From NCBI GenBank assembly GCA_963762145.1, contig CAVXJS010000007.1, forward strand, positions 320,001-384,000: DNA of 64,000 bases, written 5' to 3'. The position numbers and the translations under genes are program-made. This DNA comes from an uncultured Candidatus Rokubacteria bacterium. Lineage in GTDB: Bacteria; Methylomirabilota; Methylomirabilia; Rokubacteriales; CSP1-6. Under the pieces are notes generated by a model that made no database searches, was not told where the DNA came from, and saw nothing but the letters and a program-made list of their open reading frames with translations. This document shows, piece after piece, positions 30,287 through 36,424 of this stretch (position 1 is the stretch's first letter; each line of letters opens with the position of its first letter).

Positions 30287-31533
30287 ACCTCTCGGTCGCG
30301 ATCCTCTCGGTCCACACGTGCCCGCTCGCGGCCCTGGGCGGCAAGCAGACCGGCGGCATGAACGTCTACGTGCGGCAGACCGCGCGCGAGCTGGGTCTCA
30401 TGGGCGTGCGGGTGGACGTGTTCACGCGCTCGCAGAACGCCACGATTCCCCGGATCGTCGAGCTCGGGCCGGGCGCCCGCGTGATCCATCTGCCCGCGGG
30501 GCCGGAGGCGCCGATGCCGCGCGAGGCGCTCCACGCCCATCTCGACGAGTTCGCGGCGGGGGCGGAGGCCTTCGCGCGGGAGCAGGGGCTCCGCTACGAT
30601 CTCATCCACTCGCACTACTGGCTGTCCGGCGTGGCGGGCCTGCGGCTGCGCGACCGCTGGGGCGCGCCCCTCGTGCACATGTTCCACACCCTGGGCCGCC
30701 TCAAGAACGAGGTCGCGGAGACGCCGGGCGAGCTCGAGCCCGCGCTCCGGATCGACGAGGAGACCCGGATCGTCGCGCAGGCCGATCGCATCGTGGCCGC
30801 CAACGTGGTGGAGCGGGCGCACCTGGTCTGGTACTACGGCGCGCGCAGCGAGCGGGTCGCGGTGATCCCGTGCGGGGTGGACACCGAGCTCTTCCAGCCG
30901 ATGGATCCCGCCAAGGCCCGCGATCTTCTCGAGCTGCCCCCGGATCCGCTGCTGCTCTACGTGGGACGCCTCACGCCCATCAAGGGCCTCGACACGCTGC
31001 TGGAGGCCATGGTCGCGATTCCCGAGCCCGCCGACCTGCTGGTCGTCGGCGGCGAGCACGACGAGCCCGACGGGGGACACGGCGCCGCGCTGCGGGCGCA
31101 GGTGAAGGCCCTCGGGCTGGAGCGGCGCGTCCGCTTCCTGCGCGCGCAGCCCCAGCGGCGGCTCCGCCTGTTCTACGCCGCCGCCGACGTCACCGTGATG
31201 CCGTCGCACTACGAGTCCTTCGGCATGGTGGCGCTCGAGGCCATGGCCTGCGGCAGCCCGGTGGTGGCCTCGCGCGTCGGCGGCCTGACCACCACGGTGC
31301 AGGACGGGGTGACCGGCCGTCTCGTTCCGGAGGGCGATCCGGCCGCGCTGGCCGCCGCCATCACGCCCTTGCTCGGGAGCGCGGAGGGCCGCCGGCTCGG
31401 CCAGCAGGCCACGCGCTGGGCCGCCGAGCACCGCTGGCCATGCGTGGCGGAGTCGGTCTGCCGCCTCTACTCCGAGCTGCGTCCCGCCGCGCGCGCGCAT
31501 CTCCCTCACGCCCCCTGCAGGAGCTGGCTATGA
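30283..31533 (+). CDS. GT4 glycosyltransferase, MshA-like
   Basis: 'LSVHTCPL..GGMNVYV', 'HSHYWLSG', 'HMFHTLG..K', 'PSHYESFGMVALEAMACG'. Confidence 0.88.
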   Translation: MNLSVAILSVHTCPLAALGGKQTGGMNVYVRQTARELGLMGVRVDVFTRSQNATIPRIVELGPGARVIHLPAGPEAPMPREALHAHLDEFAAGAEAFAREQGLRYDLIHSHYWLSGVAGLRLRDRWGAPLVHMFHTLGRLKNEVAETPGELEPALRIDEETRIVAQADRIVAANVVERAHLVWYYGARSERVAVIPCGVDTELFQPMDPAKARDLLELPPDPLLLYVGRLTPIKGLDTLLEAMVAIPEPADLLVVGGEHDEPDGGHGAALRAQVKALGLERRVRFLRAQPQRRLRLFYAAADVTVMPSHYESFGMVALEAMACGSPVVASRVGGLTTTVQDGVTGRLVPEGDPAALAAAITPLLGSAEGRRLGQQATRWAAEHRWPCVAESVCRLYSELRPAARAHLPHAPCRSWL

Positions 31534-32772
31534 CGACTCGAGCCCCCATCGACGGTGAACGGACGGCGTTACGCGTGGCCGGACCGCCCCCTGGTCGTGG
31601 TGTGCATGGACGGCAGCGAGCCGGACTACATCCGACCGCGCCATCGCGGCGGGCGCGATGCCGTACCTCGCCGCGGCGCCTCGCCGGGCGGGACCGATCG
31701 CCTCGCCGACTGCGTGGTGCCGAGCTTCACGAACCCGAACAACCTGTCCATCGTCACCGGCGTGCCGCCCTCGGCGCACGGGATCTGCGGCAACTACTTC
31801 TTCGACCGCGAGTCCGACGCCGAGGTGATGATGAACGACCCGAAGCTACCTGCGCTGCGGGACGATCCTGGCCGCGTTTCGCGCGCGGGAGGCGCGCGGC
31901 TGGCGGTGGTGACCGCGAAGGACAAGCTGCGGCGGCTGCTCGGCCACGAGATGCGCGGCGTCTGCTTCTCGGCCGAGAAGGCCAACGAGACCACGGAGGC
32001 CGAGCACGGCATCGCGGACGGGCTCGGGCTGGTCGGCCTGCCGCTGCCCTCGGTGTACAGCGCCGATCTCTCCGAGTTCGTGTTCGCGGCGGGCGTGAAG
32101 CTGATGGAGTCGGTGCGCGCCCGACATCATGTACCTCTCCACCACCGACTACGTGCAGCACAAGCACGCGCCCGGCTCGGCCGACGCCAACGAGTTCTAC
32201 GGATGATGGACGGCTACTTCGGCGAAGCTGGCCGCGCCTGGGCGCCACGCTCGCCATCACCGCCGACCACGGCATGAACGCGAAGACCGACGGCGCGGGC
32301 CGTCCGCGGGTCATCTACCTCCAGGACATGCTGGACGAGCTGGCTGGGCGCCGGCCGGGCGCGCGTGATCCTGCCGATCACCGATCCCTACGTCGTCCAT
32401 CACGGCGCGCTCGGGCTCGTTCGCCACCGTCTACCTGCCCGGAGGGCGCGGACGCCCGGGCGACTTCGGCGGCGCCTGGCCGGCGCTGCCGGCATGGAGG
32501 TCGGTGCTGGACCGGCGCCGAGGCCTGCCGGCGCTTCGAGCTGCCGCCCGACCGCGTGGGCGACCTGGTCGCGGTGTCCGAGCGCGACGTGGTGCATCGG
32601 CACCGCCTGGCCCGCCACGACTCTCGGGCTCGACGCGCCGCTCCGCTCGCACGGCGGCATCACCGAGCAGGGGTGCCGCTGATCCTGAACCGCCCGGTCG
32701 CGCGGCGTCCCGCCGGAGCGGCGCCTCCGCAACTTCGACATCTTCGACCTCGCCCTGAACTTCGCCGCGTGA
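31530..32772 (+). CDS. phnA: Phosphonoacetate hydrolase, multiple frameshifts (probable sequencing errors)
   Basis: [58 protein letters not shown] spread over frames. Confidence 0.9.
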
Positions 32773-32821
32773 GCCGGTCATGAGCCGCACGCGGGCGACG
32801 CGCGCGGCGGCTCTCGTCGCG

Positions 32822-35275: not shown

Positions 35276-35292
35276 GACGAGAGGACGAGACC

Positions 35293-36424
35293 ATGGACGC
35301 GATCCCACGACGAGCCGTTCCTCCTGACCCCGGGTCCGCTCACCACCACGCGGGCCACCAAGGAGGCGATGCTGCGCGACTGGGGCTCGCGCGACGGGGA
35401 GTTCATCGCGATGAACGCGCGGGTGCGCCGACGGCTCACCGAGCTGGTCCATGGGGATGGCAGCCATGTGTGTGTCCCGCTGCAGGGCAGCGGGACATTC
35501 ATCGTCGAGGCGATGATCGGCACGCTGGTGCCGCCGGGGGGCAAGCTGCTGGTGCTGGTCAACGGCGCCTACGGGCGACGCATGGTCCGCATGTGCGAGT
35601 ACTACCGCCGGGCCTGCGTGGTCCAGGAGACGGGGGAGGATCAGCCCGCCGATCCGACTGCCCTCGACGCGGCGCTGGCGCGCGATCCGGCCGTGACCCA
35701 CGTGGTGGTGGTGCACTGCGAGACCACCTCGGGCGTGCTGAACCCGGTCGAGGAGATCGCGGCGGTGACCGCGCGACACGATCGGCGCCTGCTGATCGAC
35801 GCGATGAGCGCCTTCGGCGCCATTCCGCTCGACGCCCGGCGCGTACCCTTCGACGCTGTGGTGGCCTCCTCCAACAAGTGTCTCGAAGGTGTCCCGGGGG
35901 TGGGCTTCGCGATCGTCCGGCGCGAGGCGCTCGAGGAAGCCCGCGGCCAGGCGCCCTCGCTGAGCCTCGACCTGCACGATCAGTGGGCGGCCATGGAGAA
36001 GAACGGGCAGTGGCGCTTCACCCCGCCCACCCACGTCCTCGCGGCGCTCGACCGCGCGCTGGACCAGCACGCGGCCGAGGGCGGAGTGGCCGGGCGGGGC
36101 GCCCGCTATCGCCGCAACTGCACGCAGCTGGTGGATGGCCTGCGCGGCATGGGCTTCGAGACGCTCCTGCCCGACCGGCTGCAGGCGCCCATCATCGTCA
36201 CGGTGCGCATGCCCGCCGACCCGAAGTTCCACTTCGAGACCTTCTATGACCGGCTGGCCCGGCGCGGCTTCGTGATCTACCCGGGCAAGCTCACGGTGGC
36301 CGACAGCTTCCGCGTCGGCTGCATCGGCGCGCTCGGGGAGCCCGAGATGCGCGGGGCGCTGCAGGCCATTCGCGAGGTCGTCGCCGAGCTCGGTGTCACC
36401 TCCTGCGCGCCGGCAGCCGGGTGA
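35293..36424 (+). CDS. phnW: 2-aminoethylphosphonate-pyruvate transaminase (N-terminal frameshift)
   Basis: LLTPG..LTT, DWGSRD, HCETTSG, SSNKC, QWRFTPPTH, IYPGK. Confidence 0.93.

Follow-up and report, generated by a model that had tools for sequence, protein, structure and literature searches.

Why should a flavin- and folate-dependent enzyme be encoded in the middle of a phosphonate operon? This question is raised by a 64,000-nucleotide stretch of DNA (hereafter the window; G000:C7:320001-384000, approximately 72% G+C) from the 6.26 Mb, 88% complete genome G000 of an uncultured Candidatus Rokubacteria bacterium. At positions 31530-36424 of its forward strand the window carries phnA, encoding phosphonoacetate hydrolase, and phnW, encoding 2-aminoethylphosphonate-pyruvate transaminase. 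Between them lies a gene for an oxidoreductase that depends on flavin adenine dinucleotide (FAD) as well as on tetrahydrofolate (THF) and resembles dimethylglycine dehydrogenase (DMGDH) and dimethylglycine oxidase (DMGO). PhnW acts on 2-aminoethylphosphonate (AEP) and cannot use N-methyl-AEP, a phosphonate of common natural occurrence (Zangelmi et al. 2023, PMC10590968). We propose that the middle gene encodes a candidate THF-dependent N-demethylase turning N-methyl-AEP or N,N-dimethyl-AEP into AEP for PhnW. The linkage of this gene to AEP catabolism is well supported; as to the substrate, which is predicted from sequence, we lean towards the methylated AEPs by a modest measure.

The gene phnA occupies 31530..32772 (+), with ATG at 31530 and the stop codon at 32770-32772. 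The DMGDH-like gene, of approximately 811 codons, occupies 32826..35275 (+) and ends with the stop codon at 35273-35275; the GTG at 32826 is its homologous start, and the aligned start of the orthologue falls at 32777. The gene phnW occupies 35293..36424 (+), from ATG at 35293 to the stop codon at 36422-36424. The first-pass annotation had proposed the order of phnA, a gene with FAD and GcvT domains that bears a TWHAAG motif, and phnW, and both the order and the coordinates held.

The window copies of phnA and the middle gene are broken by frameshifts, and intact orthologues from the congener locus L003 were scored. The PhnA orthologue scores 602.6 bits with the NCBIfam model TIGR02335 (cut-off 407.55), and the PhnW orthologue scores 543.5 bits with NF010006 and 483.2 bits with TIGR02326 (cut-off 400.8). 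The phnW of the window itself is also over the equivalog cut-off, with 485.7 bits to TIGR02326 at 35312-36382. The broken phnA, 83-91% identical in DNA to its congeners, was scored as fragments only, one of which matches Pfam Phosphodiest. Motif searches located FTNPNN of phnA at 31726-31743 (+), and LLTPGPL and SSNKCLEG of phnW at 35321-35341 (+) and 35867-35890 (+).

The middle protein has the architecture of the family of DMGDH, sarcosine dehydrogenase and DMGO, whose members have about 800-860 residues, with four Pfam domains in one chain: DAO (246.5 bits in the L003 orthologue), FAO_M (68.9 bits), GCV_T (280 bits), and GCV_T_C (75.8 bits). The fragments in the window match the same four domains. 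The closest solved structures are those of rat and human DMGDH (E 7e-157 to 3e-154), followed by Arthrobacter DMGO (E 6e-124). No equivalog model in NCBIfam matched the L003 orthologue. Close relatives, labeled by NCBI as Methylomirabilota or Rokuibacteriota, are named in databases “FAD-dependent oxidoreductase”, “GcvT family protein” and, by JGI, “sarcosine dehydrogenase” or “4-methylaminobutanoate oxidase”.

The catalytic motifs of the enzyme form a full set in the window, scattered across three reading frames. We numbered residues by the 817-residue stop-to-stop reading of L003 and scored invariance over 98 aligned family members. The predicted attachment site of the flavin, His52 of the covalent-flavinylation motif TWHAAG (32952..32969, +), aligns with His48 of DMGO (1pj5) and with the DMGDH motif, and is present in 98 of 98 members. 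The His of ACEHMY (33491..33508, +; His231) and the Tyr of GHIYFKEE (33571..33594, +; Tyr257), both likewise without exception, align with His225 and Tyr259 of DMGO, a pair named as its catalytic dyad in the text of PMC5082570. The YVGELGWE and R674/E676 motifs are found in all 98 members as well, and a conserved 10-residue motif of the GcvT folate-binding domain was placed at 34711..34740 (+) by alignment and motif search. The equally invariant Asp536 of GGFESDLTV (34408..34434, +) aligns with Asp552 in the folate site of DMGO; at this position the wild-type 1pj5 and the mutant 3gsi chains differ (D to A), a mutation that we take to be D552A.

Both halves of the protein are conserved by selection. 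For the flavin and the folate half, the ratio of non-synonymous to synonymous substitution rates (dN/dS) in 28 pairs of eight congeners amounts to 0.160 and 0.221, respectively, i.e., the folate module is kept under purifying selection. Since this module is maintained, oxidation of a methyl group with transfer to THF is the most likely chemistry. The chemistry of the family of DMGDH, sarcosine dehydrogenase, and 4-methylaminobutanoate oxidase (MABO), which had been invoked for this gene at first pass, is backed by conserved residues at the flavin link (His), in the catalytic dyad (His/Tyr), and in the folate site (Asp). A departure from DMGDH and DMGO is Arg61 of GQLRSS (32975..32992, +), which is Arg in 96 of 98 members, His in rat and human DMGDH, and Asn in DMGO. 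By comparison with monomeric sarcosine oxidase, the segment that holds Arg61 may lie near the acid group of the substrate; we treat this as a lead only.

The first-pass annotation had named an association unique to this genome as an observation that would speak against its proposal. The association proved to be far from unique. Of the other 20 genomes of the genus, 15 carry phnA, the DMGDH-like gene, and phnW as a block on a single contig. Among the remaining five, G017 has the block divided between two contigs, and G016 and G006 are only 67% and 63% complete. The other two show true loss: in G005 (C146) about 750 bases of phnW are gone, and in G020 (L106, G020:C101) phnA is kept, the DMGDH-like gene after it is reduced to its last 35 codons, and phnW is absent.

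Of 251 genomes of the phylum, 37 have a PhnW match with an E value of 1e-100 or lower, and in 35 of these the match exceeds the cut-off. Outside the genus but in the same family, 17 loci hold phnW, and in 15 of them its immediate upstream neighbor is the DMGDH-like gene (by genus: g38 5/5, g42 1/1, g44 6/7, g5 3/3, g4 0/1); of the two exceptions, one, in g44, is truncated where its contig ends, and the other has only phnW. Altogether the adjacency of the two genes extends over 31 genomes and five genera of this Methylomirabilota family. The carbon-phosphorus (C-P) module around the pair varies. It is phnA alone in g1, most of g38, and g42; phnA together with phnX in G170 (L122) and G024 (L107/L108); and phnX alone in G214 and G215 (L135/L136; PhnX 351-353 bits). 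In g44 (L128-L134) the order is phnA-phnY-gene-phnW, with PhnY well over its cut-off of 635.65 (815.5 and 821.6 bits); the other sister-genus orders are phnA-gene-phnW-phnX and gene-phnW-phnX. As the C-P-cleaving genes vary around it, the gene-phnW pair is the constant unit. Such a constant pairing with swapped hydrolases fits a product that needs PhnW, i.e., AEP.

Another family of the class, f7 (genus g61), has phnX-phnW loci without the DMGDH-like gene in five of five cases. Three of these five loci (L137, L139, L141) contain, at a distance of about 3.3-5.4 kb from phnW, a gene with a DAO domain only that shares 30-31% identity with the flavin half. This gene received no NCBIfam name at E 1e-40 and may encode a Pbf-type oxidase.

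We also analyzed the 80 best homologue loci outside the phylum, one genome per species (49-64% identity), with neighbors within 7 kb classified by tblastn, clustering of open reading frames (ORFs), NCBIfam, and Pfam. Phosphonate genes are present in 13 of the 80 loci, and phnW and/or phnA in nine of the 13. In Reyranella (L016) the neighbors are genes for an iron-type alcohol dehydrogenase, a Na/Pi-type transporter, and a LysR regulator, phnW, phnA, and a gene for PhnY (802.7 bits); in Thalassobium R2A62 (L024) they are genes for PhnY (746.7 bits), PhnA, PhnW, and LysR and DeoR regulators. L027 combines phnA with an aldehyde dehydrogenase gene that clusters with PhnY genes (unscored) and with genes for PhnS2, PhnT2, and PhnU2 (505.6, 518.3, and 758.6 bits). 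L029 and L078 have phnW, phnA, and a partial aldehyde dehydrogenase gene in the PhnY cluster (unscored). In L086 genes for PhnX (316.1 bits), a LysR regulator, and PhnW precede the homologue, L091 has phnW, and in L026 and L028 phnA and phnW are divergent from the homologue. The remaining four loci are L020 (Shinella kummerowiae CCBAU 25048, 2450-4853), where genes for PbfA (655 bits) and a PbfF-like D-2-hydroxyacid dehydrogenase adjoin the homologue; L022 (a Rhizobiaceae metagenome-assembled genome, 3171-5574), with PbfA (665 bits), a PbfF-like D-2-hydroxyacid dehydrogenase, and a partial PhnX; L023 (Ensifer sp. R-19), with genes that cluster with PhnS2, PhnT2, and PhnU2 of L027 (by clustering only, unscored); and L017 (Pandoraea terrae LMG 30175), with PhnD (340.8 bits).

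The linked homologues do not form a single lineage. On both trees (FastTree of 98 sequences and IQ-TREE of 51) they are spread over at least four distinct proteobacterial positions outside the genus clade: an alphaproteobacterial clade, in which seven of nine members are linked, a Burkholderiaceae clade, the L026/L028 pair, and a gammaproteobacterial trio. The gene orders differ among these lineages, being tandem, divergent, or with regulators in between. Homologues occur in marine Roseobacter-type, rhizobial, and gammaproteobacterial clusters and are common in soil Methylomirabilota.

Two of these loci deserve separate mention. Upstream in the Reyranella locus (L016:1521-6987) is a cluster of genes for a TRAP transporter, a glutamine-synthetase-like protein, and the iron-type alcohol dehydrogenase, which may be a 2-hydroxyethylphosphonate dehydrogenase. 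In L026 and L028 we considered an aldehyde dehydrogenase and an aminotransferase as substitutes for PhnY and PbfA and rejected them: they are MMSDH (657.7 bits) and the omega-aminotransferase AptA (618.4 bits), of a beta-alanine-type catabolism.

The proposed route is as follows. The three genes would make up a single operon for the breakdown of AEP and of N-methylated AEPs. The flavinylated N-terminal module would oxidize the C-H bond of the N-methyl group of N-methyl-AEP, and probably of N,N-dimethyl-AEP too. The C-terminal GcvT module would capture the one-carbon (C1) unit on THF as 5,10-methylene-THF, with release of AEP. PhnW would then transaminate AEP to phosphonoacetaldehyde, which in this genus would have to be oxidized to phosphonoacetate by a putative aldehyde dehydrogenase other than PhnY. 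Finally, PhnA would cleave the C-P bond of phosphonoacetate.

The step after PhnW is the weak point of this route. The first-pass annotation reported no phnY or phnX in the window, and neither was found even genome-wide: the best match to PhnY (TIGR03250) has 238.8 bits against a cut-off of 635.65, and the best match to PhnX 36.7 against 220 bits. The 238.8-bit match, at G000:C21:832874-834241, is the leading candidate for an aldehyde dehydrogenase acting on phosphonoacetaldehyde in this genome. The genome is 88% complete and error-patched, which leaves the absence of PhnY unproven on this count. The lack is genus-wide, as PhnY is missing from all 21 genus genomes (0/21), even at E 1e-90, and none of the 26 genomes of the family sample, including G045, has a PhnY over the cut-off. 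PhnX was found in one of the 21 genomes, where it sits on a different contig and the assembly is 6% contaminated. The first-pass annotation had suggested that the aldehyde step is encoded elsewhere or carried out by an enzyme other than PhnY. Since genus g44 holds phnA-phnY-gene-phnW, phnY was probably lost in the lineage of the window and phnA retained. We offer two explanations of the gap and no other: a substitute dehydrogenase, or PhnA acting on external phosphonoacetate.

Two further roles were considered for these genes and rejected. The idea of the flavoenzyme as a replacement of PhnY was abandoned, since L016, L024, and genus g44 have both it and a true PhnY. A biosynthetic role of phnW is also rejected: no phosphoenolpyruvate (PEP) mutase over the cut-off is encoded in the genome (150.5 against 319.55 bits), and thus phnW is catabolic here. 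The 150.5-bit match belongs to a member of the isocitrate-lyase/PEP-mutase superfamily at 16202-16942 (+) of the window, 15 kb upstream of the phn operon.

Several observations weigh against the demethylation of methylated AEP as the function of the middle gene. On paper, the genus has an incomplete pathway beyond PhnW, as just described. Arg61 occurs also in members without phosphonate neighbors and therefore is no marker of phosphonate specificity. Comparison of linked and unlinked members did not single out a phosphonate-specific active site; 17 alignment columns split phosphonate-linked from other members (e.g., 297 Q/K vs H, 256 I vs T/A, 789 F vs Y), and these columns track phylogeny in part. 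In five of the 13 linked loci there is no phnW within 7 kb. The commonest immediate upstream neighbor of the homologues is a choline/ethanolamine-kinase-like gene (15 of 65 scanned loci, or 18 by clustering), and others adjoin tandem paralogues or genes for MttB, serine dehydratase, folD, a purU-type formyltransferase, and GMC oxidoreductase. As many members stand next to other genes, the family is not uniformly phosphonate-linked. Finally, the copy in the phn operon is the sole full-length DMGDH-type gene in the genome and so could also be an ordinary dimethylglycine or sarcosine enzyme.

The alternative that survives best keeps the chemistry and changes the substrate, either to N-methyl-1-hydroxy-2-aminoethylphosphonate (N-methyl-HAEP), which would feed PbfA, or to an N-methylated phosphoethanolamine. 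The PbfA neighbors and PbfF-like dehydrogenases of L020 and L022 hint at N-methyl-HAEP as the substrate in those organisms. Similarly, the kinase-like neighbor at 18 loci suggests a phosphorylated N-methyl amine as the substrate there. The kinase-like gene encodes about 305 residues (L042:6052-6978, L088:6087-6998, L031:1955-2872), and its best NCBIfam match, GntI kinase, has 150.7 bits, below the cut-off; the loci that it precedes belong mainly to Actinomycetota and in part to Alphaproteobacteria, and often include an amino-acid-type permease. Neither pbfA nor a kinase gene is present in the operon of the genus or the family; there the gene is constantly accompanied by phnW, and PhnW acts on AEP. 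For the window we therefore regard a different substrate as unlikely.

The same evidence allows a broader and quite speculative proposal, which we put forward with considerable doubt. The subfamily with at least 50% identity and the near-invariant GQLR Arg might consist of THF-linked N-demethylases for 2-aminoethyl compounds bearing a phosphorus acid group. Its members would act on N-methyl-AEP or N-methyl-HAEP beside phnW, phnX, or pbfA, and on N-methyl-phosphoethanolamines, made by the kinase, beside the kinase-like gene (the 18 loci, mainly of Actinomycetota). If so, there would be an unrecognized widespread route by which methylated phosphono- and phospholipid head groups are tapped for both phosphorus and C1 units. 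In the soil Methylomirabilota family studied here, its conserved core would be the enzyme-PhnW pair, onto which different C-P hydrolases are swapped.

In principle, the gene could encode a usual dehydrogenase of dimethylglycine or sarcosine, serving glycine-betaine and one-carbon metabolism, that lies in the phn operon by chance and takes no part in the breakdown of phosphonates. DMGDH and DMGO are the best solved relatives, the JGI names of close relatives point the same way, the genome has no other full-length gene of this type, and the neighbors of other members (MttB, folD, purU-type, serine dehydratase, and GMC oxidoreductase genes) would suit such a role. A chance placement is hard to reconcile with the position directly before phnW that the gene keeps in 31 genomes and five genera as the cluster around it changes, and with phosphonate genes in differing orders beside its relatives in at least four further lineages. 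The replacement of the DMGDH His or the DMGO Asn by Arg61 also argues against it, and we consider this explanation distinctly improbable.

Demethylation of methylated AEP has also to be weighed against the oxidation of the C-N bond on the ethyl side of N-methyl-AEP (or AEP) to phosphonoacetaldehyde and methylamine, with the GcvT module idle or detoxifying formaldehyde. According to the main text of PMC10590968, the known accessory FAD enzymes of AEP clusters, which belong to the same PF01266 superfamily, do exactly this. Enzymes with the same job are expected not to share a locus, and the search of the 13 linked loci turned up no Pbf-type DAO gene; the sole additional DAO-family gene seen there is a DMGDH paralogue. 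This alternative leaves the invariant folate-site Asp and GcvT motifs and the dN/dS of the folate half unaccounted for. In the family the gene is always paired with phnW, and PhnW would be needless if the aldehyde were made directly. Moreover, oxidation of the methyl group is the established chemistry of DMGDH-type enzymes, as presented in PMC5082570. Action of the Pbf kind is thus very unlikely.

The last alternative concerns the frameshifts. Private indels were defined as 1-2-base differences of G000 from at least five of six congeners in DNA alignment. They number 22 in phnA, 23 in the middle gene, one in phnW (a 1-base insertion near 35310, which parts the ATG from the remaining frame), and none in the 1.5 kb upstream; insertions outnumber deletions about 4:1. 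The damage is not local. At 41-51 kb of the window, in ABC-transporter permease genes and other genes, 63 private indels were counted against at least two congeners, including 49 1-base insertions and 12 1-base deletions. Throughout the genome, codon periodicity has collapsed in 203 patches of at least 2.4 kb, which add up to 750 kb (genome size 6.26 Mb). An excess dominated by indels and rich in insertions is a signature of an uncorrected long-read consensus and not of bacterial pseudogene decay.

Substitutions tell the same story in the main. DNA identity to congeners is 83-91% for phnA and 82-92% for the middle gene, equal to the 84-91.5% of the clean phnW. Substitution identity of the broken genes is 89-92%, again as in phnW. 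Among privately changed codons, the non-synonymous share is somewhat higher in the broken genes (phnA 24 of 53, middle gene 25 of 63) than in phnW (3 of 26), and the private substitutions in both broken genes are somewhat less third-position-biased than in phnW. This weaker bias fits extra sequencing error or misalignment near the indels, either of which is consistent with it. The middle gene is uninterrupted, with 811 codons, in eight congeners, and the best 120 database proteins (83-100% identity) are all full length, with 797-828 residues. The error patch opens approximately 11-17 bases into phnA and closes 17 bases into phnW (31541-35310), i.e., near gene boundaries; a low-coverage strain-variable segment would explain these edges, and deletions at this locus do occur in two congeners, but the explanation is conjecture on our part.

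Since the indel pattern is not local, substitution divergence is not elevated, the excess is of the indel type, and the genes are intact in congeners and databases, we are highly confident that the frameshifts in phnA and the middle gene are assembly errors, and the gene is taken as intact in the organism. Although about 46 small indels confined to phnA and the middle gene, with patch edges within about 20 bases of gene boundaries, the true losses in G020 and G005, and the missing PhnY and PhnX would suit a decayed pseudogene pair with real indels and lost phosphonate use, an outcome that the first-pass annotation had named as fatal to its proposal, the like indels in unrelated genes and throughout the genome, the substitution identity of the broken genes, and the full-length database proteins make it exceedingly improbable. 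More generally, any finding in genome G000 that is based on a frameshift needs comparison with relatives first.

The surroundings of the operon contain no phosphonate genes. The flanks encode a GNAT-type acetyltransferase (by Pfam), a zinc peptidase, and a Dpp-type ABC transporter; a further flanking ORF is glycosyltransferase-like (judged by eye only). A scan of 31000-37000 for sigma-70 promoters and terminators found none, and such a scan is uninformative for this phylum. Elsewhere in the genome (G000:C16:76721-83553) DAO-like and GcvT-like matches lie about 5 kb apart in an error-dense region, which may encode a heterotetrameric sarcosine oxidase.

It remains to compare the system with those already described. 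With the PhnW-PhnY-PhnA and PhnW-PhnX pathways it shares phnW and phnA, both identified here at the equivalog level, and sister genera carry the phnA-phnY-gene-phnW or phnX versions. The difference is the genus itself, which is without PhnY and has PhnX in one genome of 21, on another contig. With DMGDH (rat 4PAA/4PAB, human 5L46) and DMGO (Arthrobacter globiformis, 1PJ5) the middle enzyme shares the four-domain architecture, the flavin His, and the His/Tyr dyad; its acidic folate-site residue is Asp, as in DMGO, whereas DMGDH has Glu. It differs from both in Arg61 and in its setting, which is phosphonate catabolism and not choline or betaine catabolism. MABO (formaldehyde-forming or demethylating) of Paenarthrobacter nicotinovorans, another member of the fused FAD-GcvT family, demethylates a secondary amine other than a glycine derivative and leaves a primary amine. 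It is thus a precedent for a changed substrate, although its own substrate is a carboxylate on a C4 chain; this comparison is by description only.

N-methylated AEPs are abundant natural phosphonates barred to PhnW. As cited in PMC10590968, trimethyl-AEP is handled by TmpA/TmpB, iron oxygenases that cleave the C-P bond of this quaternary amine to yield glycine betaine (Rajakovich et al. 2019). This route resembles ours in dealing with an N-methylated AEP, and in the account given there neither flavin nor folate nor PhnW takes part. For the exclusion from PhnW, oxidative deamination by the Pbf flavoenzymes is the only solution described in bacteria. In the main text of PMC10590968, PbfB, PbfC, and PbfD are optional accessory PF01266 flavoenzymes of phnWX- and phnWYA-type AEP clusters that admit N-methyl-AEP, and the DMGDH-like gene shows the same recurrent optional presence in clusters of both types. 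The three Pbf enzymes are described there as not co-occurring with one another, and likewise none of them was found beside the DMGDH-like enzyme in the 13 linked loci.

The differences from the Pbf enzymes are in structure and product. That text presents them as PF01266 oxidoreductases and mentions no C-terminal domain or folate, whereas FAO_M, GCV_T, and GCV_T_C follow DAO in the DMGDH-like protein. The words GcvT, folate, tetrahydrofolate, and aminomethyltransferase are absent from the main text of PMC10590968 (its supplementary tables, listing 64 enzymes, were outside that search). Full-text literature searches, which covered the accessible text of the Pbf papers PMC10590968 and PMC12366243, found no account of a DMGDH-type, folate-linked enzyme encoded in AEP clusters. 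The Pbf enzymes, as described there, yield phosphonoacetaldehyde and methylamine and bypass PhnW; they can be encoded where phnW is missing, and some of them are accompanied by phnX alone; the DMGDH-like enzyme is predicted to give AEP and to need PhnW.

The window contributes the Methylomirabilota version of the cluster, with its invariant gene-phnW core and swapped hydrolases, and a genus having lost both PhnY and PhnX. As the gene is annotated only under the database names given above, the potential for degradation of methylated phosphonates is likely under-counted in metagenome surveys. If the proposed function is correct, a folate-coupled demethylase would be a second solution, mechanistically different from that of the Pbf enzymes: the nitrogen would stay on the phosphonate, the methyl carbon would enter one-carbon metabolism, and the pathway would depend on PhnW.

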